DNA of 64,000 nt from an uncultured virus (IMG/VR IMGVR_UViG_3300021961_000064) (lineage: Duplodnaviria > Heunggongvirae > Uroviricota > Caudoviricetes): the IMG/VR virus record IMGVR_UViG_3300021961_000064. One strand, given 5' to 3'. Position 1 is the stretch's first letter; each line of letters starts with the position of its first letter. The notes below the pieces were generated by a model. The model was not told where the DNA came from. It did not search any database and saw only the letters and a program-made list of their open reading frames with translations. Of this stretch, positions 24,703 to 64,000 are shown piece by piece. A program made the position numbers and the translations under genes.

Positions 24703-24714
24703 TTTAAGATCCTC

Positions 24715-29200: not shown

Positions 29201-32200
29201 AGTAAAGGTTGTTGTTACTGCAAGGCCAACGTTAGTAGAAATTGCAACAGCAGTATTATCAGAAATATAGTCGGGCAGAGATGTAGATCCTTGGAACTTC
29301 TGGTTGTTTGTTAGAGATACATAGAGTCTTGTTTCTACAGTTCCAACTCTTACTGTAAAGTCAGAACCACCACTTCTTCCTCCAATAGATGCAGGAGCAA
29401 CAGTGACATAATCGCCACCATTATAGTATCTACCACCAGTTTCAATAGCGACTTGAGAAACTGTTCCACCAGCACTAACTGTAATCGTTAGTGACATTCC
29501 AGTACCAATACCTGTTGTTCTTAGGGCTTGTACTCCACTATAGATACCTGCAGAAGTATATCCAGAACCACCAGCGAGTGTATTGAGGTTTAGAGCAACA
29601 CCCTTAACCAAACCAGTAGTACCATAACCAATATTTCCAGAGAAGTATGTTGGAGCCGTTATAATACCAACGGCGCCGCCCTGGGAAACAGTACCTCTGA
29701 TCGTATCTCCATTACTGAAATTATAAGTTCCAGAGTTATCCAGAATGATGTACTGGCTGATTAGATCACTAATCAATACATAAGCATTTGTTGGTTCAAC
29801 TACTGTATCACCACTCTGAATATCCGCCGCTGGAATTCTATTTGCTAGAGATGTCTTACCACCTTCATAGATTGTTCTATAGTAATTGACAACTTTTGGT
29901 GGAATTAGGTCAGCATTAATTTGACCGATAGAGTTCAACTGAACAACCGAGTTAGGAACTGCGTTTGTCGATACGGTCTTATCAATGAAGGATCCTAGTC
30001 TGTTGTTTAAGAAAGCTCTTACAGCTAACTGAGTAGAAACTCTCTTATCTTGTGGGCCACCAAGTTCATTATCTCCTAGGCCTGCGTCTACAGAGAATTC
30101 CTCAATCTGAACACCACCAGAGAGTGATAGTCGGATAGAATCCAGAGTACCAATCGTAACAGTGTTGTTAAAGATAATGTTACCAGTTCTGTTATACGCG
30201 GTAATGAAGTCACCGATCTTGAAGTCTCCAAGTTCGTTTGTACCAGAGGAGTAAACACGACCACCAAGTTCGGAAACCTGTTCAGAAGATGCAACTGTTC
30301 TACCACCATTCTGAGGTAAAGCGTTGTAGTCAATACCTGAACCAGAATATTCCCATGTATGTGAGGAAGAGTTAATGATGGATGGTCTATGGAAGTGAAG
30401 TTTGTAATCCTCTGGAAGATTAGCAATACCAGTAATTGTTGTACCAGGATCAGTAGAATCTACCTTGAATTCCAAACTCCAGTAGGTAGTGATGCCTGCT
30501 ACGTTTGTAACAGCGATTCCAATTGGAACTGGACTATGATCACTAATAACTCCATTAGAACCACCAGTAATCTGGAAGTTTCTTCTTATTCCTGCTGCCT
30601 CTTCAACAGAAAGAACAAGTTCTCTGGTTGTAGAGTTATAGGTATATGCATAACCTACGGCCTGACCACCAGAGACGTTCTGAGTAACTTCTCTACCAGA
30701 AACGAATCTAATGGTATCAGTTGTAGATGCAAGAGAAACTCTCTGATAGTTGTTGTGAGAATCAATGATTTCCTTAACGAAGAATTCTTGGTTATTCTTA
30801 GTAAAGGTATGAATACCAGTTGATACAGAAGTGAGGTCTACTAGTCTTGAGAAACTATCATCTTCATAAAGTTTGAAGCTGTTTGCATCAATATACTGTA
30901 CAAAATACTGGTTTTGGTTAACAAGTCCACCAATAATTCTAGGTGGAACCGCTTGTTCATCACCGAAGTAAACTACACTATCTCCTTGTGAGAATGGGTG
31001 TGCAGTAATATTAATTGTTTCAGTATTAGTATCAACACCAACTGCAGCATTAAACTCAGAAGTTACTAGAAGTGGTTTGAAGAGGTTGGTTGAGTCGTTA
31101 TTATTATTATCATAGAAACGACATACATATAGATCCTGATCACTTCTACCAACACCAACAACTCTTAGAGTCTGTAAACCACCAGAAGTACCAGTTGCAG
31201 CAATTCTGGAACGGTCGAAGATGAAGGAATTCTGACTGAATCCAGTAGATCTTAGAGCATAGAAACCGAAGTTAGTTGCAGAGTTGGTAATGGATAGATA
31301 ACCACCAGACTGTGCAAGTGAACCATATCTACAGAAGATTTGGAAACAAGAAACAACCTGTGAGTAACCATCGTTGATAACACGCCAACCAATACCACCG
31401 AAGGAAACCATGGTAAATGCCGCAGCAACCATGGACTTACCTTGTTCTGGTTGTACTAAGTCTGGGTTTATTTCAGCTTCTTCTGGAATAATTGGAATGT
31501 TTGGACTTAATACCTTAGATCCGTCAACCAACATTCCATTACCACCGAGGAACGATAGAATAGAACAGTTCTGGATATAAGGAGATCTGGTGATGATTGA
31601 TTTACCAGTCTTGACTGCATATCCTTCTCTTGATACAAATGGATCGGAAGGATCGTCAAATGCAACAGCGTTATCAAATGTATATTGTGGAACACCAGCA
31701 TCATCAACATAGTCCTTCATTGCAAATCCAGTTAGGTAGCAACCGTTTCTGACTCTTAGAAGGTCTTTGCCTGCATTTCCTGGTCGGATAATGGTATTTC
31801 TTAGGTTATCACCAAGAACAGCAACGTCTTCATAAAGGATAATTGGGTTGTCCTCAACATATTCACCAGCCTCAACGATAATTGCAACAGGAGTTGACTT
31901 AGCGGTTGGAGCAATGACTTCCGGAGCAGAAGTAGTACCAACACCAACGATTGTTGTAATAATTCCAACGAGGTTGCTGATTGTTGACTGAACGTTAGCG
32001 CAGCAAGATTCGTGGTATGAATTTGTGTATCCAGAACAGGTTACATCATAAACAACTTCAAAGTCAAAAGCTTGTCCTACTGTATTCTGGAAGTTTCCTG
32101 TTGGACTTACAACTACTGGAGCAGCATTTCCAAAGATTGCAGTTCCACCAGAGACGTAAGTGTGAGCAATTGTAGAAATACCAGCAGCAAATGTAATTAC

Positions 32201-35200
32201 ATTTCCGTCTACGGATGTTGCAGTGAATGTATCTCCGTATGGGCTAGAACCGTATGGATCTACTGGATATGGGAATGTGGTTGTTGTAATTCCTGGAGTT
32301 GCAGTTCCACCAGAGACGTAAGTGTGAGCGATAGTGGATACGCCACAGTTAACTACAATTTGAGCACCGAAAGTTCCATCTACACAACGGAATACATCAT
32401 AGGTTCCATATAGTGCATTGTTATTGTGTAGTGGAGTTGGGAAGATAGTTGTGGAAATTCCAGCATGTTCTGAATCACAGGAGAATTCGATTCCTTCAAG
32501 TTTTACAGTATCGTCTGGAGATAGTCCATGGTTTGCATCAAGAGTGATCGTGCAAATACCAACAACTTCATTATAATCAACATTAGTAATATTAATGTCG
32601 TTGGTGGTATAACTATCACAGGACATCGTTAGTCCAGAAAGTTTGAATCTAGATCCAGTTGTAATTCCTAGACTCGAATCTAAAGTTACAGTTGCAATAC
32701 CAGAAGTTGCTGTATACTCTAGTCCAGATACTGTAGTACTTGTTCCAGATCCAACGATAGAAGTTACAATACCAACTAGGTTTACAATTGCGGATTGTAC
32801 ACTTGCACAACAGTTTGAACTATATGCTGATGGACTGCAAGTAGAATCAAAAGCAATAGAACTATCAAATGCCTGTGATACAGTTCCTGCAACACCTGTC
32901 TGATAGTGTGTTGGAACTCCTACGTTGTTGATGACGTATGGAGAAATTTCATAGATGTATTGGAACGCAGCGATTGTTTCAGTTACTTCTCCACTTACGC
33001 TATTATTTGTACCAGTCCAATAAGAAACACCAGCTCCAACAGTCTTAGTATTACCACCGAATGATAGGTCGTATGAAACGGCCTCAATGATATGACCCAT
33101 GTCTCTTAGACACTTGGTTCTATCATAATCTGGATTTGATAGTAATGATGGATAAGTTGCGGTGATAAATCCTACAGCTTCTGCAGCGATAAAGTCTTTG
33201 TTTAGAAGTAGCAGGGTTCTTGCATCGTTATAAATGCCACTAGGACCAGCAACAGGAACGTTGTTAATTACATACTTAGATAGATTGACGATGTGATTAA
33301 ATCCAGCGATTGTTTCAGTCTTTTCACCATCAACATAGTTTGTACCAATTCCACTGTAGTATGCTAAACCTGCCTCAACAGATTTGGAGTTACCGTTATA
33401 AGTTAGGTCATACTCGATAGCATCAACGATGTAACCAACATCTCGTTTGCAAATTTCCCTATCCCAATCTAAAGCGGTAGAGAATCCAGGGAATGTTGCA
33501 GTAATAAATCCTACAACTTCTTCTTGGATGAATTCTCTGTTAGCTTTGAGTAGTTTCGCACCATCTAGATATTCTGCTCCAGGTAGAACGAATGATTCGA
33601 AAGATGCTAACTGAGCCGCACGCTTGAGTGTCTTAACTGGTTTTGTCTTACCGTCATCATTGTCATTACCATTAGCACCAGAAACATAAAGTCTATTTTC
33701 ATACAAACCACCTGGGTTTGTGGAGAATCCGAGATTACCGAATCCATCAACAATTAGAGACATACCATCTCTACCTGGGTTTGGTGGTAGAGTTAGTGTA
33801 TAGTTTGTCGCAATAGCAACTCTTGATTGTTGGAATGTTACTGTTTGATCTAGTCCAGTATAAGTATTAACTCCGACAAAACTTAATTCAGTTAGACTGG
33901 TGTCATTGAAAGTTTGAATTCCAGTGTAGTTTAGATTAGAACCGGTTAAGTTTGTAGCGATTCCAGAATCTACTTGTAAATCCTTAACACCGTGAATTGC
34001 ATCAAATCTTCCATCAATAGTCATTCCATCAGTTGTTGATGTTAGACCAACGGTTAGAATTCCTGTGAGTCTTCCATTTCCATCAACAATAAATGTTGTT
34101 TGACCAGCACCAATACGTACATTTCCTAAAGTAGCGATTCCAGTATACTCAATATTAGTACCAGAAAGCTCAGTAACAATACCAGAAGCAACTTCAATCT
34201 GGTTTAGAGTTGAAATACCAGGAACAACAAAGTTATTAACAGTTAGGTCAGAAGTAATGATAGTCCTTCTGGCAATAACAGTATCAAAACTACCAATTCC
34301 TGTAAAGTTTGCATTTTTACCTTTTAAGGAAGGAATTGTACTAATTCCCGATACAGAGTCTTCAAAATAGAAGTCTTGAGTTATTACAGCTCCTTCTTCA
34401 TAAGTAAATACATATTCACTGACTCTTCTAAAGACATAAGATTGTGTCTGAATTCCAACGTTTGTAGCTGCCTGGGAAAGTGTAATCGAACTTACACCAA
34501 TTCCAGCAACTGTTGTTCCAGCGAGAATGTATGTTGGTGCAATAATTACATGACCGATATCAATATTTGCCGTTGCAATACCTGTGATAGTACTTACACC
34601 AGTTGACGCTAAAGTACCTTGGTAGATACTTTCACCATATGGTTCGGAACTTGCTACAGAAACAGTTACCGATCCAATACCGATACTGATAACGGTGACT
34701 CCGGATCCAACATACTCACCACTTACCGCAGAACCTACGCGAATATTGTTAGTTGTTACTCCAGCAATCTTATCTCCATTAATCGTTTCAATATAACCAT
34801 TCGTTGTTTGGATTGGTACGGTGTTTAGAGCAAATCTGCTAATTTCAACACTACTATTTCCGATAGATACAACTTCTGTTCCTGTAGGCAGATATTCGTT
34901 TGTTACGGCATAACCTACTTGAACACCATCAGTAGCAACGCCACTAATGTAATTAGTATTTCCTACAGCAAGTGTTCCTTGATATACTACTGAAAGAGGA
35001 TTGTTTACAACGATTCTCTGTAGAGCATTAATCTCTGTAGCGGTAAGATGCTCGATTCCACTTACACTAGAGTTACCACCATTCAGTGTAATGGAAGAAA
35101 CTCCAACAGTAAGAATTCCGGTTACTCTTGCATTTCCTGTTACGTCTAGATTAATAGTACTTCTCGAAGCACTTTCAAATGTCTGTAGAGGAACTACTTC

Positions 35201-37168
35201 AGTATTTGTTGAGAATTGGTTAATAGTAACTTCATTAGTACCTACACCAGAAATTACTGTTCCTGGTAGTAGATTTTCTCCAGCAAGACGATTACCTACA
35301 GCTAAAGTAGAAACACCGGCTACAACAATTGATTTAGTTGACGATAATCCAAGTGTTGGTGGAGTCAATCCTACACCTGCTGCAGCAGCATCCAAATAGA
35401 TAACATCTCCAATCAGATATCCTCTACCACCACGTTCTACATTAATAGATAAAATATCATTGTTGAAAATTTCTAGGTTAAATCTTGCACCAACACCACT
35501 TCCGGAACTTGTAGATGCGACACTGACATAAGTACCATCAGAATATTCGGTAGCAATTCCAAGGGGCTCAATACTTCTTACAATTCTATTTGTGTCAATT
35601 CCGGTAATAGTGTCTGTACCAACTCCTGCTATAAATTCTGTTCCTACTCCCGTATAAGAAGTACCTAAAGTACCAGCAACTACATGAATATTATATGGTC
35701 TACCCAATCCAATGGTTACGTTGCTATTTGGATCGGGCACTCCATTGACATAATTAGCTATTGTCGTAAATCCACTTACGTTGAAATAAGTAGCTAGACC
35801 AGAGCTAACAAATGCATCATCTAGTCTTGCACTAGAAATACCTACTGTAGTACCAATACCAACAGAAATATAAGCTTCATCTAGTCTTGCACTAGAAATA
35901 CCTACTGTAGTACCAATACCAACATTGATATATGCCAAATCTACATTTGATGCCGCAACGACCATAGTAGTTGCAATACCAACATTCATGTAGTTGTTAT
36001 CGACGATCATTGTCGTCGCAATACCAACGTTGATATTACCTGCATTAATATAAGCTGTTGTTGTAAATCCTTGATTGACAAGAGCTACATTAGTATTTGT
36101 TGCACTTAGATTTAAATTTCCACCATTTAATTCGGTTAGGTTTAACCTTTGAATTACAGCCTGATTAACATTAAGTACATCAGCGTTCACTTGACCCATT
36201 TTTTGGTCAACAAAAGCAAATTCTGTTGTAAATCCTGGGTTAATGAACGTTAAAGTTACAGTTCTGGAGAATGTAAGAGGAATTCCAGCACCAAATGTAC
36301 TAATTCCACTTGAAATTTCTACGCCACCTGGTACAACTGTGGATGCTAAAGATACAATAGTTGCTGGAGAACTTGAGATAAACTCACTTTCTACCTCATC
36401 ACCTACTTGAAGTCCTGTTGTATCGAGTCCAGTTACAGTACTATATCCTATATCACTTACACCATCCAAAACAGTACAGGATCTGGTACTAATACCAAGA
36501 GTTCCTGTAGAATTTTGTGAAATAACTACGTAATATGGATCTAAAAGGGCATCAGTACCACCAACCCCAGTTACTGTAGTATCTGATAAAATATTTCCGG
36601 GTAAAGTTACTGCATATCCAATAGTAATTGCATTAGTACTAGCAATAGAAACTAATGTGTCGCCATTAGAAGTCAAGAATTTCGCAGTTGTCTGCGTAGT
36701 AAAATCTTGAGTTAAAGTAGTTAGTCCTACAAATCCAATACCAATAGAAGCTACACTGGATCCAACAGCAATATGAGTTCCAGATACTGCATAACCAACT
36801 CTAATATTATTTGTTGCAACTCCAGAAATAATATCTGATGGTGTTCCAGTAATAATACCACTTCTAAGTGGTGGTTCTTCATACCTTACTGTAACACTTC
36901 TAGCATTAACGTCGCCTTTTACTACTGTATCACCAATAACTCTGAGTTCATAATCATTTTGGATCGAACTTGTTCCGATTCCAACACCAGTTTTATTTGT
37001 TATTTGCTGTGTTGCGGCTGCACCAACTAGGGGGTGGCCTCCAACAGATGAACCGTCGTGGACAACAGCAATGTCTAGAGTGGTGTCAATTGTTAATTCA
37101 CCTTCCGCTCCAGTAAATATTGCGTGCTCAGCTGTCGTGCCCCTTCTTAGTTGTACCTGTTTAGTCAT
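26234..37168 (-). CDS. Giant modular tail fibre with N-terminal Mtd-N-like anchor and C-terminal peptidase S74 intramolecular chaperone
   Basis: N-terminus QVQLRRGTTAEH...GELTIDT...HDG; beta-helix region (IIVEAGEYVEDNP, GDNLR, SPYIQNCS); NADLLDG and GSGLDAD junctions; C-terminal SDLRLKTNI...GVIAQEVE; GATAAATA at 37206-37213. Confidence 0.9.
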   Translation of the reverse strand: MTKQVQLRRGTTAEHAIFTGAEGELTIDTTLDIAVVHDGSSVGGHPLVGAAATQQITNKTGVGIGTSSIQNDYELRVIGDTVVKGDVNARSVTVRYEEPPLRSGIITGTPSDIISGVATNNIRVGYAVSGTHIAVGSSVASIGIGFVGLTTLTQDFTTQTTAKFLTSNGDTLVSIASTNAITIGYAVTLPGNILSDTTVTGVGGTDALLDPYYVVISQNSTGTLGISTRSCTVLDGVSDIGYSTVTGLDTTGLQVGDEVESEFISSSPATIVSLASTVVPGGVEISSGISTFGAGIPLTFSRTVTLTFINPGFTTEFAFVDQKMGQVNADVLNVNQAVIQRLNLTELNGGNLNLSATNTNVALVNQGFTTTAYINAGNINVGIATTMIVDNNYMNVGIATTMVVAASNVDLAYINVGIGTTVGISSARLDEAYISVGIGTTVGISSARLDDAFVSSGLATYFNVSGFTTIANYVNGVPDPNSNVTIGLGRPYNIHVVAGTLGTSYTGVGTEFIAGVGTDTITGIDTNRIVRSIEPLGIATEYSDGTYVSVASTSSGSGVGARFNLEIFNNDILSINVERGGRGYLIGDVIYLDAAAAGVGLTPPTLGLSSTKSIVVAGVSTLAVGNRLAGENLLPGTVISGVGTNEVTINQFSTNTEVVPLQTFESASRSTINLDVTGNARVTGILTVGVSSITLNGGNSSVSGIEHLTATEINALQRIVVNNPLSVVYQGTLAVGNTNYISGVATDGVQVGYAVTNEYLPTGTEVVSIGNSSVEISRFALNTVPIQTTNGYIETINGDKIAGVTTNNIRVGSAVSGEYVGSGVTVISIGIGSVTVSVASSEPYGESIYQGTLASTGVSTITGIATANIDIGHVIIAPTYILAGTTVAGIGVSSITLSQAATNVGIQTQSYVFRRVSEYVFTYEEGAVITQDFYFEDSVSGISTIPSLKGKNANFTGIGSFDTVIARRTIITSDLTVNNFVVPGISTLNQIEVASGIVTELSGTNIEYTGIATLGNVRIGAGQTTFIVDGNGRLTGILTVGLTSTTDGMTIDGRFDAIHGVKDLQVDSGIATNLTGSNLNYTGIQTFNDTSLTELSFVGVNTYTGLDQTVTFQQSRVAIATNYTLTLPPNPGRDGMSLIVDGFGNLGFSTNPGGLYENRLYVSGANGNDNDDGKTKPVKTLKRAAQLASFESFVLPGAEYLDGAKLLKANREFIQEEVVGFITATFPGFSTALDWDREICKRDVGYIVDAIEYDLTYNGNSKSVEAGLAYYSGIGTNYVDGEKTETIAGFNHIVNLSKYVINNVPVAGPSGIYNDARTLLLLNKDFIAAEAVGFITATYPSLLSNPDYDRTKCLRDMGHIIEAVSYDLSFGGNTKTVGAGVSYWTGTNNSVSGEVTETIAAFQYIYEISPYVINNVGVPTHYQTGVAGTVSQAFDSSIAFDSTCSPSAYSSNCCASVQSAIVNLVGIVTSIVGSGTSTTVSGLEYTATSGIATVTLDSSLGITTGSRFKLSGLTMSCDSYTTNDINITNVDYNEVVGICTITLDANHGLSPDDTVKLEGIEFSCDSEHAGISTTIFPTPLHNNNALYGTYDVFRCVDGTFGAQIVVNCGVSTIAHTYVSGGTATPGITTTTFPYPVDPYGSSPYGDTFTATSVDGNVITFAAGISTIAHTYVSGGTAIFGNAAPVVVSPTGNFQNTVGQAFDFEVVYDVTCSGYTNSYHESCCANVQSTISNLVGIITTIVGVGTTSAPEVIAPTAKSTPVAIIVEAGEYVEDNPIILYEDVAVLGDNLRNTIIRPGNAGKDLLRVRNGCYLTGFAMKDYVDDAGVPQYTFDNAVAFDDPSDPFVSREGYAVKTGKSIITRSPYIQNCSILSFLGGNGMLVDGSKVLSPNIPIIPEEAEINPDLVQPEQGKSMVAAAFTMVSFGGIGWRVINDGYSQVVSCFQIFCRYGSLAQSGGYLSITNSATNFGFYALRSTGFSQNSFIFDRSRIAATGTSGGLQTLRVVGVGRSDQDLYVCRFYDNNNNDSTNLFKPLLVTSEFNAAVGVDTNTETINITAHPFSQGDSVVYFGDEQAVPPRIIGGLVNQNQYFVQYIDANSFKLYEDDSFSRLVDLTSVSTGIHTFTKNNQEFFVKEIIDSHNNYQRVSLASTTDTIRFVSGREVTQNVSGGQAVGYAYTYNSTTRELVLSVEEAAGIRRNFQITGGSNGVISDHSPVPIGIAVTNVAGITTYWSLEFKVDSTDPGTTITGIANLPEDYKLHFHRPSIINSSSHTWEYSGSGIDYNALPQNGGRTVASSEQVSELGGRVYSSGTNELGDFKIGDFITAYNRTGNIIFNNTVTIGTLDSIRLSLSGGVQIEEFSVDAGLGDNELGGPQDKRVSTQLAVRAFLNNRLGSFIDKTVSTNAVPNSVVQLNSIGQINADLIPPKVVNYYRTIYEGGKTSLANRIPAADIQSGDTVVEPTNAYVLISDLISQYIILDNSGTYNFSNGDTIRGTVSQGGAVGIITAPTYFSGNIGYGTTGLVKGVALNLNTLAGGSGYTSAGIYSGVQALRTTGIGTGMSLTITVSAGGTVSQVAIETGGRYYNGGDYVTVAPASIGGRSGGSDFTVRVGTVETRLYVSLTNNQKFQGSTSLPDYISDNTAVAISTNVGLAVTTTFTGTGIDVGGAVDFTNDRIVIGDNSIFGDGDAVRYYSTGNEVGPLVLLDTYWVKKVGLSSVELYDSYALSSRVNLQSSGTGSHTLTRLGINTSTDQITFVNHGFAQGDPVQVTSPGSLPTGITTDSFYFIGSRTDNTFTLHLTRSDSLLSANGLLYNAIDIEAVNGAGIVSFTKQNITYTSTVNTSSTDENNWALLATNTVDAANIVSGIIAPSRLGNGTANSQTFLRGDSSYQKVVMSVGIGTTQPIGVTATSVDFAPSGVGINTYYGNVNITLNRVQTTVDLYSTLGVSKFKNSTFLIGSDGEVQIKSAAGGGDVDASTFGGNAPAYYLDINNIQGNIPITRGGTGLQALPSAGAILIGNGSSYNLTTTPTFTGDVAFNGGSGAITLNANGDITMSSGSTWSGEKSFKIQAYSNNLYLQYTTNLYMRNSGGSNRFTLDTSGNMSVSGTVTGTRLISNVANGTAPLSVTSSTVVTNLNADLLDGLQLHTGVNNQANRVVRTDGSGYIQCGFINSSSGELGDWGNGTVRYTASNDAYLRYLSRNSIKVQLGLSGKYDTDRRDFTTDSNYFTGVMGWSNINLNTLFDYGSGFIDAWSNPANQPSGTSHWVGVQAMHYTNASNRYGWQMVVGAGDPSLTYIRGTWGSSFTSWRKMWNDGNDGSGSGLDADTVDGYGTSTGRGGSTVAVRDGSAGLTAAYFTPGIAGSNSGNARSSYPYAFGFQESGGWSGAIPDLVLQYHTGVTLAANSSYEGIRFKNDYNSDTVRFQINGGSNYNYSFNWLRTDPGIYNATNGANFYVNTSTSYCPWYCTGSRSGYYGLAFNAGNLPHVMFDGSGNGGIYHQTGGRWNIYYSYSNNCLAVTGSTTSATYELYVSGDIYATGTITAASDLRLKTNINTIENALEKVLALRGVTYEWDLTKAKGRKEGVKMGVIAQEVEPIIPEVVTYAADVDEYSVEYGNMTALLIEAVKEQQQIINTMRAEIETLKLKLGE
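35817..35924. repeat. Tandem duplication with 60-bp period (48 bp identical)
   Basis: tcatctagtcttgcactagaaatacctactgtagtaccaataccaaca at 35817-35864 and 35877-35924. Confidence 0.95.
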
Positions 37169-53563: not shown

Positions 53564-56500
53564 TTAGACCGGTCTTGTACGGAAAGCTTGTGGATTTGTT
53601 TGAATTCCGACTATTCCGTTATCATTATAAACTTCAAATGTTTCTGGGGCTCCCAAAACTCTATTTTGATAATCGTATAATTTACCCCAACTATAATTTC
53701 CATAGAAAGGAAGTGTTCCACTAGAACCATTGGTATTGATTCCAGAGTTATCTGCTCCTCTCTTGTAAATTTCAACATAATTATCATTTGGAGATTTTGG
53801 TGCCAAATTGCAAGTAACGGTTGTTACGCCGGCAGATGCGCCAACTCCAACAGAAGTTTGAACATCCTCTACTCTATAAACACCGTCTAAGAAAGTGGTA
53901 GCAGTACCAATCTTAGAAGTCGGATAGTTAGCCATTCCACCAAGAGAAGTAGTAATACCGATAATTGGATGTCCAGTAGTTACATTGGAATTCCTTATAA
54001 CAAAATAATCTCCTTTGGATAGTTGACTATAAGTTACATTAAACGAATTCAGTGAAGAATATCCTATCCCAAGAGTACTATTATCATAATAATCGGATTG
54101 CAGTATAAATTGTACTTTTGGTGTGGTTGTTCCTATTCCTGGAGTACCAGCAAGGAATGTATTAATTCCAATCACTCTACCAAAATCACCCAGGGCCTTA
54201 ACTGACTTGACAAGTTCTGTCTTGACTGGATCAGGTTCTATCAATACAGATGGAGGATTACTTGTTGAATATCCAAATCCACCATCCAGAATAGAAATCG
54301 AGGTAACAACTCCAGCGGTTACGTTGGATACAGCCGTCGCTCTATTAAAGATGGGTTCCGCATAAATTGCAGTATTTACTCCAACAGAAACATATCTACC
54401 CTCAAGACCAACCTCGGAAACAAATCTAATAGAGTTCAACGAATTAAGTTGATCTGTTGGTCTATAAACCCAATTTATCAGATCGAAGGAATAATACAAA
54501 TCACCAATGGAGTTTAGAGCAACATAGAAATCATTATAGAAAATATCAACAATATCACCCGGAATCAAGGAAGTTCCTAATAATTCGAAAGATGATGGAT
54601 CGGGGACACCAGGTTGTCCAGAATAATCCGCAGTTCTAATAATAGTTCCATTATTTCCGACAGCAATAAATCTATCACCAACAAAAATAACTTTATTCAA
54701 TTTTGCAAAAGTAACCGATCCAAGAGTATCCCAGATAGAATTGTTTGTAGATCTAATGACTACTCCATCATCTCCCACTGCAACGATTTGCGATAATCCA
54801 ACTGCAAGACTATTGAGTGACTTTGTTGTTCCAGTAAATCTTCTAGTAAAGACACTGGTTCCAATACCCGATGCTCCAAACACTGCTCCTATAGCAGTGG
54901 CAACACCAACCATTGTCCAAGTATCAAGTTGAGGATTATAGACTATATCATTTATTGTTTCATTATAAGTACTGGAAGTGAATCCAATTACCCCAAACTG
55001 AGGTACAAATATTTCTTCAATTATATTTAATTTTTCCCAAGAAGTGATAGTTTGTGCGTATCCAACAGACTTAACAACATAACCATATCCGCCTCCAGCC
55101 ATGAAGATATTTGTTCCACCACAAGAAACTACTCCAAATGAAACTGTATTTCCGTATCCAATATAATCGGATTGCCAATCGGCACCATCATAACTATAAG
55201 CAAAAGCACCACTATTTCCAACAGAAACAAATACATTTCCATGATCAACGGAATTTAAAATATGTGTAGTAGAAAGTCCAGAAACTGTTCTCCAATTCTT
55301 AATTGGATCTTTTTTAGTAATCGCAGACTGAGAAACAGTTATTACTGGATTTGATGTATAAGCATATCCCACTCCACCAGACGAAATTTGAATAGAAGAA
55401 ATCGTTGAAGATGACGAAACTACACATGTTCCAATTGCTGGAGAAATTTCTCTTGTTTCGCATATTTTAATATTTCTCTTATCCTCACTGAGGGTATCAA
55501 TATCAGTGAAAATTGGGAAGGCATTATCTACATATATTTCTACATCATCTGGTAGAACTTTCTTAATTACATACGCATTTGGAACAATTCTACTATTCAG
55601 GGATGGTCTGGCCTTAGAATAAAGAACACCGCTTATTACTCTATCTCTAGTCTGTTTTTGCCACTTCAGTGGTCTTATCTTAGTGGGGTTGGTATTAATT
55701 CCAAGACTATCATATGTAAATGTATCAAGTTGATCGGAAGAAACAATAGTCTTTACGACTCTATCAAACTGATCGGTATCTAAAAGATCATCTTTATTTT
55801 CTCTAATTTGAATAAAGTCACCTTCCTTAATAGTCTTTGGTGGTTCTACGTCTTCAACGTCCACAGATGATCCTCTGAAATAGAGGATTGTGCAAGTTGA
55901 ATTCTCTTTTGGAGCTTCTTTAAATGAAACTCTAGATCCAGAGAATGTATAAGAATCTCCAGGAGATTGTAAAATATCATTTACGTAAATGAAGATATTA
56001 TTAGTAATATCCAAATCAGATCCTTGAGGGGTTCTCAAACTTATAACTTCTTTTACGTTATTATTTGTTATGGATAGAGTAAACTTCTTCCTAAATCCAT
56101 TGAAATATTGAGATATATCATCAAATTTTATAAATTGTCCAGGATACAATCCAGTAAATTTGTCCGTTTGTACTTCTTCAACTTCAAAAGTAAACTCTTC
56201 AAACTGTCTGAAGCTTACAATTCCAGACTGAGTATAATAATGAGATATTGTTGAACCAGCAGATAGGAAAGTGAATTGATTTGTAGATCCAACACTCGTT
56301 ACACGGAAATCATAAGCTCCATCAGTACTTACATCTGGGAATCTAAGGACTCTTTGGGTTGTGGGAACTTTCTTGGTTATAGAAACTTTTTGTGCTGTAC
56401 CACCAGAGACATAATTATGTGCGATAGTGGATATGCCAGCATTAAATGTGAATGATTTGTTGGAAGCTACATATGAAACGAGGAATGTCTTACCATAAGG

Positions 56501-59500
56501 TGAAGTGCCATCTGGGAAGATAGTGGTTGTTATTCCCGCATGTTCAACTGCACAAGAGAATTCTAAACCGTCTAAGGTTACATAATCTCCAACAGATAAT
56601 CCATGAGAAGTGGATGTAACTACGGTAGAGATTCCTGTGGACTCTGTATAAGTGAATGTAGATACACCAACCTGTCCATATCCCAAGAATTCATGTGGAA
56701 TTGTTGAAATACCAGAATTAATTGTAAATGTTGTTGAAGAACCAACACCTGTTACTCTGAATGTATAACCATATTCACTTGTTCCATCTGGGAAGATACT
56801 TGTAGTAACACCAAGAACAGCAGTTCCACCAGAAACATAAGTATGTGCAATAGTGGAAACTCCAACAAATATATTAAACTTATTAGTAGTTGGAACACCC
56901 ACTATCTCGAAAGTATCATATGAATTGAAGGCAAAACTTGTTGAAGATCCAACATATGGGAAAATAGTTGACGTGATTCCTGCAGTTGCAGTTCCGCCAG
57001 AGACGTATGTATGTGCAATGGTTGAGACGCCAACATCCACAACGATTGTATTGCCAGAAGTTCCAGATGTAGTCTTGAATACATTATTTGTACCGGTCAA
57101 TGATTTTTGACTTGAACCATCATATGGGAATAGAGTTGTAGAAATACCAATGGTAACTGTTCCACCAGAAACATAAGTATGATCAATTGTTGATATTCCT
57201 GCATTAATCGTGATGGTGCTTCCTGCAGTACCAGCGACAGTTTTGAAAACATTATATGTATTTGCCAAAGTATTGGGGCTACTTTGTGGGTATGGATTTC
57301 CAAAAGTATTGATTCCTGCGGGATATGGGAATAAAGTTGAAGTTAATCCAGCTGTTACTGGAGGGCATGATAGAAGTATATTTTCAACCCTCACATATTC
57401 CCCTGGTTCTATGCCATGATCACCGGAAAGAGTTAATGTGCAAAGTCCAACAAAATTTAAATAATCGAAATTAACAACATTTAATGTTGAGATTCCTGTC
57501 CAAGAGTCACATGATAATTGTATTCCATCTAGTTTTACATAACCACCAGCATCGATTCCATGATTTGCATCAGTTGTAACGGTAACGATTCCAGAAACCT
57601 CATCATAAGTCAAATTAGTTATGTTGGAGGTAGAAATTCCCAACCAAGAATCACAACTAAACTCAATGTCAGCCAAACGAGCATAATCGCCAACCAAATA
57701 TCCATGATCAGAATCTAGTATAATTGTAGTGATTCCAGCGTAATTATTATAATCTACTCCAATAATGTTGAATGTGGATCCAATGCTGGTGCAACTGAAA
57801 GGTAGATCCTTCAGAGTTACCATATCATTTGCGTTGATTTGGTGTGGTTGAACTGTAGTTACTGTAGAAATACCTGTTAGATTATCATAAACGAATGTAC
57901 TAATTCCTATTTCGGGCCAACCAACGAATATGTGTGGGATGGTCGAAACACCAGCATTAATGGTAAATACTGTATTACCTATGGATGTTAATGCTGGGAA
58001 AACTTTTCCATAAGGAGAAGTTCCATCTGGGAAGATAGTTGTTGTGATTCCAGAATGTTCTTCAGCGCAAGCGAATGGAAGATTATGTAAGAATACTTCT
58101 GTACTTGTCTTGTTCTCATCAACATCTGTTCTTAATACTCCATGTGGAGAATATGTTGTTACTGTGCATATGCCAGTTGCATTATCATATGAGAATGACT
58201 TAATTCCAACTTCATCATAACCACACGTAAATGCAGCACCAGCAAGTCTAACGACATCATTCTGGGATAGCCCATGGACATCTGTTGTTGTAACGGTGTT
58301 TATTCCAGTAATATTGTCGTAAGTAAAATTGGATATGTTTAAAATGTCCGATCTGAAACCAGTTCTCGTTAGTAGATCAGGTACTTTTAAGATATCACCA
58401 ACTTTGTAACCTATGCCAGGATTATCAATCTTAAATGAAATGACACTAGATCCTTGACCAACAACTACAGAAACTTTTGCGTTTTGGCCAACACCAGAAG
58501 TTCCTCCAGTGTAAGCCACGCCAAGATTACTGTAACCTGTAGGAATTCCAATAACAACTTCTGGTGGCGAAGATGTGGTATACCCGGAACCAGCATTTAC
58601 AATAGTAAATCCAGTAATAGTTCCAGAAGCTCCAACAGAAGCAGTAGCACTTGCACCATATCCAATTGTGGAAGCGATACTCACTGAAGGTGGCAATCTA
58701 TATCCAGAACCTATTCCAATAATATCAATCGAAGAAATGGTTCCTGCAACAGAAACATTTGCTACTGCTGTTGCACCCTTAAATGGTATATATCCATAGT
58801 TTGAACTCTGAGTTACCTTGGAAATTCTACCTGCGCTAGGAGTTCCCGTTAAGAATCTTATTACATTCTCACTGGTTCCATCAATAGTGTAATCAGTTCT
58901 TGGTTCTTGGAATACATTGTTTATCAATAGGATAGGATTGTTATTAATATCAACACCACTATTGACATCATTGAAAAGTGATGTTGTAGTATTTCCATTT
59001 ACCTTAACAGTAAACTCTGTTGCGGCAATTCCAGTAAATGATAGAGAAATATCATCTAAAATAACATTCTTATCTTGTGGTTTGGATGGATCAAACTGTC
59101 TGGATAGAACCCTACCGGCAAATATGGATCCAGTTTGCAAACCTGCTGGACCAATTTTACCATATGGAGGAGTAGTGAAGTATAAAGTATCCCCAACAAT
59201 ATTAAAATCTCCATTTAATACTGTTGAAGCAGCTCCAATAGTGTGAACTCCACTATTTGTTCCAAGATAACCTCTCTCAACCTCAACCTTATCTTCAGCA
59301 ATAACTCCAATAGTTTTGATGGAAACATACTCTTGATCGATATTAATAACATCTCCATTAGAAAGAGAATTTATTCCAGAAGAGATAGTAAGTACTGTTG
59401 TAGAAGCGCTGGATACGGGATCACCTAAAGAAACTTCTAAAGATTTTCTACGGAGAGGTCCCTGAATTACTCCATCTACCGTAATTACAACGCTACTATT

Positions 59501-62500
59501 TGGTTCTTTATATTCTAATGTGTGTGTTCCTGTACCATAACTTAATAAGTCAACAAATACACTTGTGGATAATCCAGAAACTTTGAATTTATTATCATCA
59601 ATTTTATAAACAAATAGGGATCTTGGTAATTTATTTGTTCCTAAGAAAGATGGATAAAAACTAATATCATCATTTGGGGCCACTCCACCAATATAAGTTC
59701 CAGCAATAGAAACTAAGGAAGTTGAAGCATATCCAGAACCACCATTAACAATAAACACATTTTCGAGTCTTCCATCATTATCTCTAGTTACTGTAAATAA
59801 TGCTTCAGAACCAACACCGGTAACGGAAGATGGAATATTAACATAAGAAGCATTTGCTTGAGCCTGTATCTGAGTAGCCGTTGTAGATGTAACAACAAAG
59901 CTCAAATCATTAGTTGGGGTGGCTCCACCCATATAAGTTCCGGCAATAGAGACCGTTTCTCCAACAACAAACTGGCTTCCACCCGTTTTAAGAGTAATAC
60001 TCGTACTTAAAGCATTACCAGTAGATGCAGAGTATGTAATAAGAACATCAAAAGTAGCATTTACTCCAGACAAATCTCCGTTTCCAATTGCACTCAAAAC
60101 TACTTTACTTGTGGGTCCTACTGGAACCAATACCGTAGAAATACCAATCTCTGCACCAACATCATTATTATATCCATTTTGAAGTATGGCTCCACCATTT
60201 ATTGACCCTATTCCAGTAATAACATCAACGTCACCAGAAACATAAGATGTTGTTGCAATTCCAATAGGATTTCCAGTATAAGAGTAAATTAATTCTTGTC
60301 CAGATTGGAAATTGTGATTTGGCAATACGAACTGATTTCCTTGCAGATCAATGACTGTTGTACTTAATCCACTAAATTCTCTCTTAAAGAGTGGGAATCC
60401 CTTATTCTTTAATTTGAATGTAGATAGTCCAACTATAGAACCACCTCTGGAAAGAGAAGGATATGTAATGGATGTAGGAGCAAAATTGGATCCGAGTCCT
60501 ACTATGGTAGTCACAATTCCAACATAATTTACAATAGCAGATCTAACATCCGCACAATCAGTCGAACCAATATTAGTTGTAGGGATCCCCGATAAACTTC
60601 CAGATATAACTGCTGATGTTAAAATTCCAACCAAGTTGGATATATTTGATCGTATATTTGCACAGGAATTTGGATCGGTATTAAATCCAGTAACAGGATC
60701 TGCAACAATAGTCAAATCTCTAACGTTTAATTGATTGGTAACAGCTTTACTGCAATAATCTCTTAGAGAATGGAAAGCGACCACAGATTCCTGTTCTTCA
60801 CCTATTAATCCTGTTGTTAATGCAACTCCCGCTCCACTAAAATACTTCTTCGTTGCATAAATTATATGTTGATTTGTGCCATAATTAACATCCTCAGCAA
60901 CTGCATCAATAATATATCCAAGGTCTCTATAACATTTCAATCCACCTGTAGTATAAGTTCCAACATTTATTGATGGTAAACTTGCAGTGTTTCCTGCGCC
61001 AATAACAATGGTTACAAGAGATACTAACGTGGAAATATTATTTTGGACATCTTGACATGCTGAAGTACTTGTATTGGATACTGTAGATCCAACTCCGACC
61101 ACCGGTGGGCCTGCTGTTACAGTTAGATCTTTAATTGTCAATCCGTTTCTAACAGCAGACTTCATCAAATCTCTTGCCTGTTCAAAAGCATAGATTGATT
61201 GAGTCTCTTCTCCAACTAGTCCATTACTGATAGGAGTAGTACCCGAAACATCAAAATACTTTTGAACAAACTCTCTAGAATATTTGTTGCCACCAGTAAA
61301 TATATCAGTGGATATTGCATCAACAAAATAACCAATATCTCTCTTACACTTATCTTGTGTACTGGAAACATCTGGGTAAGTCAGTATTAAATTACTCCAT
61401 GTTGTATCGATAATTTCTTGTCTATTTTGTTGAATTAATCTATATCCATCATAATATCTTGATCTACCATTAGTTTGGTTGTCTCCAGGGAAATAAAAAT
61501 CTGGGAAACTGACTGCTATAGAAGCAAGAGATTTATCTAAAATTTCTTTTTTATTAGCTACAATTAGATTTCTAGCATCTTTATTTCTATAGAGAGTTTC
61601 ATTTGTTGGATCTTGTATTAGAGCAAAGTTAAATTCTTGGTCAACGGCAGTTTGATATAAAGTTGGTGGGGATTGATTGTTGATAACATATTGTGATAAG
61701 AATTTAACATAATTATAAGCAAATAGTGTCTCTTCAGTTTCATTGGAAACGTAAGAGGATCCCGCATTCCAATAAGCTAACCCAGCTTCAACTGACTTAT
61801 TATTGGAATTATATTTTATATCATGTGCAATTGCATCAATGATATATCCAACATCTCTCTTACAAGTTTCTCTGTCATATGTGGAATTTGAACCAATATT
61901 TGGATAGTTATACTCAACAAAGGAAACTACTTCCTCTTGAATAAATTCCCTATTAAGGTTCAACATATCTGATGCGTCTGCATATCTTCCTCTCAAAGCC
62001 TGAGATGAAGTTCCGTCAAATTGATTAGAAATATCATCAATCTTCAAAACTTTATTTGTTTTATTGAGAATATAATTTCTAAGTGCAACTCCTTCATTAA
62101 AATAAACCCTTTCAACAGCACCATCAGGTAAGAAATCTTCTTCATATACTAATGCAAAATTATCTCTCTGATTTAAAGAAGCTACATTATCTAAATTAAC
62201 AAGGAACTGAGAAGCACTTGCAAGAACAGATGGTTTTAAATTGGTAGATTTAGATATACCAACATTCGTTGACTCTAATGATGGTTTTGTTATTAGTTCA
62301 AGATCGGAGAATTCTTTGAATCCAGATGGGTGAATAATAGACCTAACGGATTCTCTCCACTTTGAATATGGAATTGTACTCTTAATCGAATAAGAGAACT
62401 TTTGATAGTAGAAGTTATCTGCGATTCTTTGTTGGAACTCATTCAGGATACCAACGGCATTATCAATTTGACCAACCTTATCTCTTGAAACTCCCAAAGT

Positions 62501-64000
62501 TGCATTTAGAGTAAATGTATCAAAATACTCTACTGTACCTGTAATCTTAGAAGATTCTCCAGTTATTTTATCTCCCAAACGAAGTTGTCCATAAGACTCG
62601 GATATTCTCAATTGATTTAGATCATTATTCCAACCATCCTCCATTGCTACGCCGTAGAAAGTAGGAGCCGTAACTTTTTCTTTAGAGAAATATTTTACAT
62701 CATCTGACAAATTCATTTCGAGGATAGGCATATCCTTCTTATTGATAACATACCCTAAAGTAATATCAGAATCGTATGTACCAAATGCACCTGTAGAAAT
62801 GCCTGCCATACTATAGGTTACTGTTCCGTTATTTTCATTAACAGATGTAACTGTAAAGAAAGCATAATCATAAGCAGAAGAATTATAGTTTGCAAGATGT
62901 CTTGTTGAAGCAGTTAATCTACAAGACTCAACAAAAATTTCATCTCCAACAGCAAATGGGAATACAGTTTCAGTTCTACCAAAACCAATAGGGATTAGAT
63001 CCAAATTGGTCAATTCTAATGTAACATTATCTCCACTAGTTTGGATGAAGTCAATATCATATCCATTTGAATTATACAAAGAATATATTTCAAGTGGGCT
63101 GCTGAGATTTGTAACATTTTGCAAAATATTCACATTGGTAATTGACCCGCCAGAAACTTCTGCGGATAATTTTATATCCGTATTATCCTTTACATATAAT
63201 TTTGGTGGATTATTATAATTTCGGCCCCCAGTTTGAATTCCAATACTTTCTATTGTTCTTATATCTTTTACTCCAACAATAGTTGGAACACTTAATGAAG
63301 GTGTAAGAGTTGGATCGGTTGGATAATCAAATCCATCTTTAACCCTTTCATATGTCTCCACAGATCCAATTCTTGGAGAAGTCAATTTTACAATTGCATT
63401 TTTTCCATTATCGGAAATAATACCATTAACATATGGTAAAGAAGAATATCCCTTTCCACCAAAGTTGATTTTAAGTTTATCGATAGGACCGGATGCAGAT
63501 TTGGAGTCCGTGCTGTAAGAAATATTTGTGGCGTTATAAGAAAGTTCTTCCTCGGGAGTGGCCTTGCCTTTCAAGTTTACTGAGAATGTTTTATCGGAAG
63601 ATACATTGATTTGGAATCTTCTCTGCAAAATATGTGGTCTCAATACAATCTTATTGTATCCGTTAACTTCCTTATCGGAAGATATTTGATTCTTTCTTTC
63701 ATCAATTGGACTCTTTGGAATCAAAGTATAATAAATTAATTGTGGAAATAGTTCATTGGCAGTATTCAAAGTTACATTAGAATCAACATTTCCAGGGATT
63801 CCCTGTCGAACAACTGAGAACGTGTTTCTTGTTGCACCAATAAGTTCGATTCTTCTTTGGAAATCGGGATCTTCAAAAAATTCCAAGTCCATATCAAGTA
63901 GACTCGAATCTGAGAGATCAAATTTAAGAATATCATTCTTAACCGCAGTGATTGGAGGATTTAATGAATATAGATAGTGGGTTCCGCCAGCAGGAGCAGT
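53564..64000 (-). CDS. gp7: Giant baseplate wedge initiator (gp7-like); 5' end lies beyond the window
   Basis: Frame is open from 64000 (TAPAGGTHYLYSLNPP...) into the tracked ORF; DNFYYQKFSYSIKS...HPSGF wedge motif; directly upstream of gp8. Confidence 0.8.
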   Translation of the reverse strand, partial: TAPAGGTHYLYSLNPPITAVKNDILKFDLSDSSLLDMDLEFFEDPDFQRRIELIGATRNTFSVVRQGIPGNVDSNVTLNTANELFPQLIYYTLIPKSPIDERKNQISSDKEVNGYNKIVLRPHILQRRFQINVSSDKTFSVNLKGKATPEEELSYNATNISYSTDSKSASGPIDKLKINFGGKGYSSLPYVNGIISDNGKNAIVKLTSPRIGSVETYERVKDGFDYPTDPTLTPSLSVPTIVGVKDIRTIESIGIQTGGRNYNNPPKLYVKDNTDIKLSAEVSGGSITNVNILQNVTNLSSPLEIYSLYNSNGYDIDFIQTSGDNVTLELTNLDLIPIGFGRTETVFPFAVGDEIFVESCRLTASTRHLANYNSSAYDYAFFTVTSVNENNGTVTYSMAGISTGAFGTYDSDITLGYVINKKDMPILEMNLSDDVKYFSKEKVTAPTFYGVAMEDGWNNDLNQLRISESYGQLRLGDKITGESSKITGTVEYFDTFTLNATLGVSRDKVGQIDNAVGILNEFQQRIADNFYYQKFSYSIKSTIPYSKWRESVRSIIHPSGFKEFSDLELITKPSLESTNVGISKSTNLKPSVLASASQFLVNLDNVASLNQRDNFALVYEEDFLPDGAVERVYFNEGVALRNYILNKTNKVLKIDDISNQFDGTSSQALRGRYADASDMLNLNREFIQEEVVSFVEYNYPNIGSNSTYDRETCKRDVGYIIDAIAHDIKYNSNNKSVEAGLAYWNAGSSYVSNETEETLFAYNYVKFLSQYVINNQSPPTLYQTAVDQEFNFALIQDPTNETLYRNKDARNLIVANKKEILDKSLASIAVSFPDFYFPGDNQTNGRSRYYDGYRLIQQNRQEIIDTTWSNLILTYPDVSSTQDKCKRDIGYFVDAISTDIFTGGNKYSREFVQKYFDVSGTTPISNGLVGEETQSIYAFEQARDLMKSAVRNGLTIKDLTVTAGPPVVGVGSTVSNTSTSACQDVQNNISTLVSLVTIVIGAGNTASLPSINVGTYTTGGLKCYRDLGYIIDAVAEDVNYGTNQHIIYATKKYFSGAGVALTTGLIGEEQESVVAFHSLRDYCSKAVTNQLNVRDLTIVADPVTGFNTDPNSCANIRSNISNLVGILTSAVISGSLSGIPTTNIGSTDCADVRSAIVNYVGIVTTIVGLGSNFAPTSITYPSLSRGGSIVGLSTFKLKNKGFPLFKREFSGLSTTVIDLQGNQFVLPNHNFQSGQELIYSYTGNPIGIATTSYVSGDVDVITGIGSINGGAILQNGYNNDVGAEIGISTVLVPVGPTSKVVLSAIGNGDLSGVNATFDVLITYSASTGNALSTSITLKTGGSQFVVGETVSIAGTYMGGATPTNDLSFVVTSTTATQIQAQANASYVNIPSSVTGVGSEALFTVTRDNDGRLENVFIVNGGSGYASTSLVSIAGTYIGGVAPNDDISFYPSFLGTNKLPRSLFVYKIDDNKFKVSGLSTSVFVDLLSYGTGTHTLEYKEPNSSVVITVDGVIQGPLRRKSLEVSLGDPVSSASTTVLTISSGINSLSNGDVINIDQEYVSIKTIGVIAEDKVEVERGYLGTNSGVHTIGAASTVLNGDFNIVGDTLYFTTPPYGKIGPAGLQTGSIFAGRVLSRQFDPSKPQDKNVILDDISLSFTGIAATEFTVKVNGNTTTSLFNDVNSGVDINNNPILLINNVFQEPRTDYTIDGTSENVIRFLTGTPSAGRISKVTQSSNYGYIPFKGATAVANVSVAGTISSIDIIGIGSGYRLPPSVSIASTIGYGASATASVGASGTITGFTIVNAGSGYTTSSPPEVVIGIPTGYSNLGVAYTGGTSGVGQNAKVSVVVGQGSSVISFKIDNPGIGYKVGDILKVPDLLTRTGFRSDILNISNFTYDNITGINTVTTTDVHGLSQNDVVRLAGAAFTCGYDEVGIKSFSYDNATGICTVTTYSPHGVLRTDVDENKTSTEVFLHNLPFACAEEHSGITTTIFPDGTSPYGKVFPALTSIGNTVFTINAGVSTIPHIFVGWPEIGISTFVYDNLTGISTVTTVQPHQINANDMVTLKDLPFSCTSIGSTFNIIGVDYNNYAGITTIILDSDHGYLVGDYARLADIEFSCDSWLGISTSNITNLTYDEVSGIVTVTTDANHGIDAGGYVKLDGIQLSCDSWTGISTLNVVNFDYLNFVGLCTLTLSGDHGIEPGEYVRVENILLSCPPVTAGLTSTLFPYPAGINTFGNPYPQSSPNTLANTYNVFKTVAGTAGSTITINAGISTIDHTYVSGGTVTIGISTTLFPYDGSSQKSLTGTNNVFKTTSGTSGNTIVVDVGVSTIAHTYVSGGTATAGITSTIFPYVGSSTSFAFNSYDTFEIVGVPTTNKFNIFVGVSTIAHTYVSGGTAVLGVTTSIFPDGTSEYGYTFRVTGVGSSTTFTINSGISTIPHEFLGYGQVGVSTFTYTESTGISTVVTSTSHGLSVGDYVTLDGLEFSCAVEHAGITTTIFPDGTSPYGKTFLVSYVASNKSFTFNAGISTIAHNYVSGGTAQKVSITKKVPTTQRVLRFPDVSTDGAYDFRVTSVGSTNQFTFLSAGSTISHYYTQSGIVSFRQFEEFTFEVEEVQTDKFTGLYPGQFIKFDDISQYFNGFRKKFTLSITNNNVKEVISLRTPQGSDLDITNNIFIYVNDILQSPGDSYTFSGSRVSFKEAPKENSTCTILYFRGSSVDVEDVEPPKTIKEGDFIQIRENKDDLLDTDQFDRVVKTIVSSDQLDTFTYDSLGINTNPTKIRPLKWQKQTRDRVISGVLYSKARPSLNSRIVPNAYVIKKVLPDDVEIYVDNAFPIFTDIDTLSEDKRNIKICETREISPAIGTCVVSSSSTISSIQISSGGVGYAYTSNPVITVSQSAITKKDPIKNWRTVSGLSTTHILNSVDHGNVFVSVGNSGAFAYSYDGADWQSDYIGYGNTVSFGVVSCGGTNIFMAGGGYGYVVKSVGYAQTITSWEKLNIIEEIFVPQFGVIGFTSSTYNETINDIVYNPQLDTWTMVGVATAIGAVFGASGIGTSVFTRRFTGTTKSLNSLAVGLSQIVAVGDDGVVIRSTNNSIWDTLGSVTFAKLNKVIFVGDRFIAVGNNGTIIRTADYSGQPGVPDPSSFELLGTSLIPGDIVDIFYNDFYVALNSIGDLYYSFDLINWVYRPTDQLNSLNSIRFVSEVGLEGRYVSVGVNTAIYAEPIFNRATAVSNVTAGVVTSISILDGGFGYSTSNPPSVLIEPDPVKTELVKSVKALGDFGRVIGINTFLAGTPGIGTTTPKVQFILQSDYYDNSTLGIGYSSLNSFNVTYSQLSKGDYFVIRNSNVTTGHPIIGITTSLGGMANYPTSKIGTATTFLDGVYRVEDVQTSVGVGASAGVTTVTCNLAPKSPNDNYVEIYKRGADNSGINTNGSSGTLPFYGNYSWGKLYDYQNRVLGAPETFEVYNDNGIVGIQTNPQAFRTRPV

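Follow-up and report, generated by a model that had tools for sequence, protein, structure and literature searches.

Half-domains ordered like brackets in a giant cyanophage structural protein suggest recursive self-insertion of a small beta-barrel

Here we describe an array of half-repeats in a giant protein encoded on a 64,000-nucleotide stretch of DNA from an uncultured virus of the Caudoviricetes (IMG/VR record IMGVR_UViG_3300021961_000064; this whole stretch is called the window below). The array is made of two kinds of segments, N-halves and C-halves, and very probably these are pieces of single domains that have been recursively inserted into one another. An earlier interpretation made from the letters of this DNA without database searches (the sequence-only reading) had proposed growth by recursive self-insertion, distinct from tandem duplication. 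Our computational results agree with it: a predicted model contains composite barrels, and the numbers of N- and C-halves covary among homologs. The array gene is on the minus strand (open reading frame, ORF, 53564..63892, in a frame that stays open up to the window end at 64000), and the plus strand of 56213-58345 has stops throughout. The array occupies residues 1850-2560 of the window translation (P0001); the envelopes of profile hidden Markov models (HMMs) span residues 1851-2560, corresponding to window positions 56213-58342.

A strict regular expression applied to the translation finds six N-halves and six C-halves, with the motif STIxH occurring seven times. The HMMs were built in a first round from the window halves and in a second round from homolog halves (1077 N and 1044 C); they identify seven halves of each kind, arranged as NNCNNNNCCCCNCC. 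All the halves that the sequence-only reading had listed are thereby recovered, in the same exactly closing order. The details that it had pointed out are present in the translation as well: two C-halves have a shortened end (Ca ends in IPHIFVGW, Ce in IPHEFLGY), three final strands are stacked after Cf (GGTAQKV-SITKKV-PTTQRV), and all seven N-halves retain a His and the terminal Cys, as all seven C-halves retain the His of STIxH. A random order of seven N and seven C closes with a probability of 429/3432, or 1/8, so closure in the window protein alone is not significant, and the weight comes from the homologs.

In the arrangement that we propose, the array would hold seven copies of one small domain. 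Instead of following one another in tandem, complete copies would be lodged in the loop that joins strands 3 and 4 of another copy, immediately past its near-invariant Cys. The corresponding bracket tree is N1[ N2Ca ][ N3[ N4[ N5[ N6Cb ]Cc ]Cd ]Ce ][ N7Cf ]Cg. On its way out the chain would pass through the N-halves and on its return through the C-halves, crossing each interdomain junction twice, and both ends of the array would exit from a single barrel, N1-Cg. Because the chain goes out and returns, this topology suggests a branched, doubly connected and stiff projection on the giant protein. The parts of the array, all on the minus strand, are as follows (window coordinates, residues of the translation, and the basis of the assignment).

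58223..58342, minus strand: N1, N-half of the outermost barrel, residues 1851-1890, partner Cg by bracket matching (HMM envelope).
58067..58210, minus strand: N2, N-half, residues 1895-1942, contiguous with Ca (regular expression and HMM envelope).
57905..58057, minus strand: Ca, C-half, residues 1946-1996, last strand shortened, IPHIFVGW (translation and HMM envelope).
57791..57910, minus strand: N3, N-half, residues 1995-2034, partner Ce (VIA-align on the nest model).
57653..57772, minus strand: N4, N-half, residues 2041-2080, partner Cd (FCCH alignment to the nest model).
57509..57628, minus strand: N5, N-half, residues 2089-2128, partner Cc (VIA-align on the nest model).
57365..57484, minus strand: N6, N-half of the innermost barrel, residues 2137-2176, contiguous with Cb (VIA-align on the nest model).
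57152..57355, minus strand: Cb, C-half, residues 2180-2247, its FPYP followed by a long variable loop (HMM envelope).
56984..57154, minus strand: Cc, C-half, residues 2247-2303 (HMM envelope and model).
56816..56986, minus strand: Cd, C-half, residues 2303-2359 (HMM envelope and model).
56666..56818, minus strand: Ce, C-half, residues 2359-2409, last strand shortened, IPHEFLGY (translation, model and HMM envelope).
56552..56671, minus strand: N7, N-half, residues 2408-2447, contiguous with Cf (unit model).
56390..56542, minus strand: Cf, C-half, residues 2451-2501, with a full last strand, NYVSGGTAQKV (unit model and HMM envelope).
56348..56383, minus strand: two extra short putative return strands, SITKKV and PTTQRV (sequence).
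56213..56347, minus strand: Cg, divergent C-half, residues 2516-2560, which would close the outermost barrel with N1 (HMM envelope).

What does one N-half followed by one C-half look like when folded? An alignment of 42 contiguous N+C units, taken both from the window and from related viral contigs, was used to fold the unit N7+Cf with AlphaFold2. The model (predicted local distance difference test, pLDDT, 79; predicted template modelling score, pTM, 0.73) has six strands, three from each half, and at this level of confidence it superposes on solved FCCH domains as a six-stranded closed beta-barrel. Against the FCCH domain of UBA6 (residues 213-300), VIA-align gives Z 10.0 and a root mean square deviation (rmsd) of 2.6 with 85 of 108 residues aligned at 22-24% identity; Z is 8.6 against the FCCH domain of 2v31, and a Foldseek search of the unit model matches E1 FCCH with an E-value of 1.8e-4. 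The model also matches the outer domain of T1-like tail tube proteins and the phage endosialidase barrel. FCCH is described, in passages of PMC13576161, as a six-stranded closed antiparallel barrel. By sequence profile, the Pfam FCCH family (PF16190) scores residues 2418-2503 (N7+Cf) at 16.9 bits (E-value 0.0068), below the cut-off of 29.5; precomputed PF16190 matches exist in three homologs (P0004, P0024 and P0044). In the BFVD database the unit fold is present in many cyanophage "fibre" proteins. According to the predicted model, the domain is a six-stranded beta-barrel of FCCH/RIFT type, with strands 1-3 contributed by the N-half and strands 4-6 by the C-half.

The deepest part of the array, N3..Ce (417 residues of the 727 amino acid full array), was also folded with AlphaFold2. 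The alignment was collected from blocks of the form N^kC^k at 143 further loci, 78 rows of which aligned to N3..Ce. The resulting nest model has a pLDDT of 76.8 and a pTM of 0.44. Mean pLDDT over blocks of ten residues ranges from 67 to 93 in the four N-halves and from 85 to 93 in the outermost one, N3; the variable loops are low, including model residues 202-219 in the loop region of Cb. We read the barrels from the aligned ranges that VIA-align reports. The FCCH domains of UBA6 and UBA1, each a contiguous chain of approximately 80 residues, are placed on model residues 46..370 (residues 2037-2361 of the protein; N4..Cd) with Z 9.6, rmsd 2.1 and 77-82 residues aligned, so that approximately 220 residues intervene between the two halves of one barrel. 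Other E1 FCCH chains (Z 7.4-8.2) are placed on 139..261 (N6+Cb). A second search, over 48,161 representatives and with the Foldseek step omitted, also places 4hiz_A (Z 7.6) on 139..261 and adds the two remaining ranges. Four chains (1ddg_A, Z 5.5; 1f20_A, 5.2; 4e0f_A, 5.2; 1j9z_A, 5.0) are placed on 94..315 (N5..Cc). Nine chains with Z 5.0-5.9 span 1..417 or 3..417 (N3..Ce), among them 8c4l_B (Z 5.9, 73 aligned), 1hze_A (Z 5.3, 69 aligned), 1sqr (Z 5.1), 6geh_A, 8iyk_J, 8ftm_B, 2pia_A and 6e0v_A.

The two ends of each range pack into one barrel in the model, because small single-barrel chains could not otherwise span them. The pairings N6-Cb, N5-Cc, N4-Cd and N3-Ce, which the sequence-only reading had predicted, all appear in this way as concentric placements. 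Recursive (nested) domain insertion is defined, in the relevant part of PMC13114784, by the order A1-B1-C-B2-A2. In the model, a host that is interrupted by a complete guest and is still predicted as one fold is seen at N4/Cd, and guests that are themselves hosts are seen across the four placements 139..261, 94..315, 46..370 and 1..417.

We then consider the order of halves across homologs. Whole proteins were written as words of N and C letters for 122 related giant cyanophage proteins, which gave 56 distinct words and 1644 half-domain letters. Exactly balanced words are found in 74 of the 122 proteins. Among the distinct words, 22 are balanced (for example NNCNCC, NNCNCNCC, NNNNCCCC, NNCNCNNCCC and NNNCCNCC), in 22 a single letter lacks a partner, and in 10 two letters do. 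In 2000 shuffles the mean number of balanced words is 3.1 and the maximum is 9. Shuffling leaves 309 letters unmatched on average and never fewer than 230; the real words have 52 of 1644, six-fold fewer. N and C counts move together from one homolog to another, as expected in the sequence-only reading if matched pairs are gained or lost. Contiguous runs, counted in 80 loci and not de-duplicated, are balanced in 84 of 100 cases. The halves are closely spaced: mostly 7-9 amino acids separate N from N, 3-4 separate N from C, and 0-3 separate C from C. In 21 related arrays an outer type of N-half ("...FTCGYD") co-occurs with the outer type of C-half to which Cg belongs, whatever lies between them; the arrays of L180 and L194 have a different ending. 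Splitting the arrays at gaps longer than 45 amino acids was tried and rejected, as it breaks true nests with a central foreign insert (e.g., NCNNNNCNN followed by CCCCCNNNCCC), and the whole-protein word was used as the unit of analysis instead.

The window protein would have seven barrels and a depth of five; relatives reach 34 pairs and a depth of eight. The largest words, 62-68 letters and balanced (31-34 pairs, depth 8), come from S-CAM7-like proteins of approximately 4000 amino acids (P0005-P0028 and L135-L137), each of which carries that number of pairs on a single chain. These proteins include a branched block of 15 pairs, NNNNNNNNCCCNNCCNCNCNCCCNCCNCCC, eight levels deep and common to 23 sequences. 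In P0127 (a representative of 1292 amino acids, possibly a fragment), residues 325-1227 hold ten N-halves in succession, followed by seven C-halves; the N-halves are mostly 6-7 amino acids apart, with two gaps of 35-38. Read by the same rule, this order implies a putative nest at least ten deep. The unit itself is rare: an exhaustive profile search finds it in only 400 of 1.84 billion cluster representatives.

Several observations weigh against nesting. All the structural evidence is prediction, and the pTM of 0.44 leaves the relative positions of the domains in the nest model uncertain. The Z-scores of 5-6 for N5..Cc and N3..Ce are "middling" on the scale of VIA-align itself, and the ranges that it reports give the first and last aligned residues only. 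The rows of the nest alignment were preselected as N^kC^k blocks, and coverage of the outermost layer is thin, at 3-23 of the 78 rows per block of 20 residues (20, 3 and 23 in N3; approximately 20 in Ce). The model covers N3..Ce; the pairing N1-Cg comes from bracket matching and the return strands from sequence. Among 145 new representatives, the arrays of 113 do not touch the ends of the protein; only 50 of these are balanced, and 26 have one unmatched letter. Some distant proteins contain runs of N-halves alone (e.g., P0136, with 16 N and 0 C). Finally, the congruence of N-N and C-C similarities under the bracket pairing is weak in the window protein (r = 0.22, rank 1008 of 5040 permutations), and we do not count it as support. 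Of 12 other proteins tried, three had too few nested pairs, and in the remaining nine the result is mixed: as few as 12 and as many as 2579 of 5000 permutations equal or exceed what is observed. In P0006, sequential pairing outscores bracket pairing. Joint loss of the Cys and His was considered as a further test of pairing (2 double losses against a permutation mean of 0.8; 353 of 2000 permutations reach the observed value), and it is uninformative because both residues are too conserved.

The N-only runs deserve a closer look. After each N a segment "C..DG....SYP" follows at unit-like spacing, and this is probably a divergent C part that the C-half HMM overlooks. The pattern is found in P0136, P0173, L171, L174, L184-L186 and L191, where many N-like halves ("HDVTNATYD..TG.M.LTIG.H...") are followed by "C..DG....SYP" and the C-half HMM is silent. 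The sequences suggest one of two things: either the N-half motif extends beyond the array family, or there is a second type of C-half.

Could the composite barrels form between chains, with the N runs of one subunit pairing with the C runs of another in a domain-swapped dimeric or trimeric fibre? Phage fibres are usually oligomers, the modelling covered the monomer only, and the window word NNCNNNNCCCCNCC reads as a reverse-complement palindrome, a property that antiparallel swapping requires. However, 14 of the 22 balanced words are not palindromes of this kind and yet are properly closed (Dyck) words, which appears to fit nesting within a chain better than antiparallel swapping between chains. 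Moreover, the linkers from the ends of inner domains to the outer halves have 0-4 residues, as insertion into a loop predicts, and in the monomer model all four barrels are closed, their strands having high pLDDT. We therefore judge such swapping to be quite unlikely. That the N and C segments are independent three-stranded modules, strung like beads, and that their balanced order is inherited history and not structure, we find scarcely credible: N-like segments lacking a detectable C-half in distant proteins, the 63 of 113 representatives that are not exactly balanced and the weak mirror-tree signal speak for it, but an N-half and the C-half contiguous with it are predicted to close into a single six-stranded barrel with Z 10 to a known single domain, the nest model builds barrels from distant halves, unmatched letters are six-fold fewer than in shuffles, and the N-only runs carry the divergent "C..DG....SYP" segment at the spacing of a unit.

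Besides the loop after the Cys, the sequence-only reading had implied a second insertion site from the stacked final strands of the window array. The homologs support this at the level of sequence, in that the number of return strands climbs with the number of sibling inner domains. With one inner unit (the sole NNCC protein), the last inner C is followed by a linker of 16 amino acids and by no separate return strand. With two inner units (NNCNCC, NCNNCNCC), the linker is 19 amino acids long with 2 strands, and with three (NNCNCNCC, NNCNCNNCCC, NNCNNCCNCC and the window protein) it is 25 amino acids long with 3 strands. This rule holds for all listed linkers except one of 10 amino acids, which is a parse artefact. 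It is tempting to think that each further sibling enters the preceding one halfway along its last strand, at a GG bulge, and that a return strand then completes the interrupted strand; SITKKV and PTTQRV after Cf would supply what the last strands of Ce and Ca, both shortened, lack. Some N-halves in related proteins are cut after the first hairpin (approximately 23 amino acids) and followed at once by a full N-half (L159, 1785-1807; L183, 3406-3428; L197, 357-380), and in the arrays with truncated N-halves the outer C-halves are very divergent. Such arrays hint at a further insertion site, the third, which would lie between strands 2 and 3.

Recursive self-insertion within one chain leads to a broader proposal, namely that marine T4-like cyanophages build monomeric, tree-shaped virion arms in which an FCCH-like barrel is self-nested by a recursive "grammar" with two (perhaps three) permissive sites. 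We offer it tentatively and would put its chances at slightly under even. If it holds, no protein would have a domain nested in itself more deeply or on a larger scale, and these phages would have a way other than the trimeric fibre of making receptor-binding structures that are long and stiff.

The sequence-only reading had raised a metal site made of His, Cys and His. Across the family (approximately 1300 halves) the Cys of the N-half is conserved in 95% and the His of the C-half in 96%, as against only 70% for the His of the N-half; such a site is possible, with backing limited to the two strongly conserved residues. On the nest model, the endosialidase barrels (1v0e 424-506, 3gvj and 4hiz 255-341) superpose with Z 8.6-8.9 and rmsd 1.8-2.1 over 76-82 aligned residues. 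In K1F endosialidase this barrel is presented, in the portion of PMC12632334 cited here, as the site of polysialic-acid binding and host discrimination. By analogy the array would most likely be a lectin-like adhesion or spacer arm. The loops that are most variable and of low confidence follow the motif FP(D/Y)G, and these are candidate binding surfaces.

The window as a whole is the structural module of a T4-like cyanomyovirus, with genes for the major head protein, portal, sheath and terminase, and its DNA matches are to Synechococcus phages. Two further features belong with the array.

53564..64000, minus strand: giant structural gene, truncated at its 5' end by the window edge, at the probable gp7 position of a T4-like baseplate module (open frame, PHROG match and neighbours).
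32135-32737, minus strand: minimal NNCC nest, residues 1478-1678 of ORF 26234..37168 (profile HMMs).

A database protein (P0002) that is 100% identical to the product of the giant gene has 5334 amino acids, so the window carries only its C-terminal part of approximately 3478 residues, and because of this identical protein the first ATG of the giant ORF, at 63892, is not the true start. The database protein has a precomputed PF14240 match. A Pfam scan of the 3442 amino acid window translation gave no significant match, and a sequence search of the PDB found no relative (best E-value 0.36). The giant gene product matches phrog_2885, "baseplate wedge subunit" (E-value 3.8e-269), the downstream neighbour at 51942-53537 belongs to phrog_438, also a baseplate wedge subunit, and in phage S-T4 a weak blastn match (71% identity over 6% of the query) falls in a giant gene flanked by gp6 and a wedge gene. 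Given the PHROG label, the wedge gene next door and the flanking genes in S-T4, "gp7 position" is a reasonable description of the giant gene. With a wedge gene following it in the window and its upstream neighbour beyond the window end, the protein probably shares with T4 gp7 a place between a gp6-like gene and wedge genes, and its PHROG label names a baseplate wedge subunit; it differs in being five times longer (5334 amino acids), and the nested array is also found in proteins annotated as tail fibres. A second giant protein of the window (ORF 26234..37168, 3644 amino acids, with matches to tail-fibre PHROGs) contains the two-deep NNCC nest of the same barrel listed above. Elsewhere, a 2501 amino acid ORF at 44430-51935 (minus strand) matches phrog_358 (unknown function) over its full length, and the S-T4 gene at the same relative position is annotated as "virulence-associated VriC protein." At 23552-25272 (minus strand), three small neighbouring ORFs (186, 197 and 185 amino acids) all match phrog_6942, "tail fiber protein," at its C-terminal end, and look like tandem paralogs.

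How does this array compare with known systems? Recursive self-nesting as a mode of growth has a precedent in the SBHM domains of Si3, the insertion in the beta' subunit of cyanobacterial RNA polymerase. A survey of ECOD-classified domains, both solved and AlphaFold-predicted, reports a six-level recursive insertion there (PMC13114784), and an extract of PMC10895346 counts eight SBHM domains in Si3, four of them assembled from distant stretches of the chain. In both cases one small beta domain is recursively self-inserted, giving an elongated arm whose two ends meet at one point (a predicted arm in the case of the phage array). The differences are several. The phage fold is a six-stranded barrel of FCCH/RIFT-like type and not SBHM; the array sits in a virion protein and not in a polymerase; the phage relatives are far larger, with up to 34 pairs and a depth of eight per chain and a fragment with ten successive N-halves; the phage array has an apparent second insertion site with return strands; and its nesting is known from prediction alone.

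In E1 enzymes, too, the FCCH domain is an insertion. The phage unit shares its six-stranded barrel in the predicted model (PF16190; 2v31, UBA6 213-300), but the Pfam score is below the cut-off and there is no E1 context. Domains of FCCH type decorate the outside of siphophage tail tubes, according to passages of PMC13576161. Self-nesting is predicted for the phage arrays and is not a feature of E1 enzymes or of those tail tube proteins. The endosialidase barrel (K1F endoNF, 1v0e 424-509; phi92, 4hiz 255-341) has the same fold and is likewise part of a phage host-recognition protein; endosialidases, however, carry a single barrel that is not nested, and sequence identity is 16%. Searches of open-access papers and bioRxiv turned up no account of phage proteins with nested FCCH-like barrels.

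If nesting is correct, these arrays would be a second and much larger natural case of recursive domain self-insertion after the SBHM domains of Si3, and their many independent architectures would allow us to study how a nest grows without passing through misfolded, unbalanced intermediates. Annotation pipelines that assume contiguous domains would miss or mis-segment these proteins. A correct domain map would tell us which loops to mutate and which fragments should fold alone (balanced blocks only). The giant genes that encode the arrays occupy a large part of the structural modules of cyanophages, and they are probably determinants of host range.

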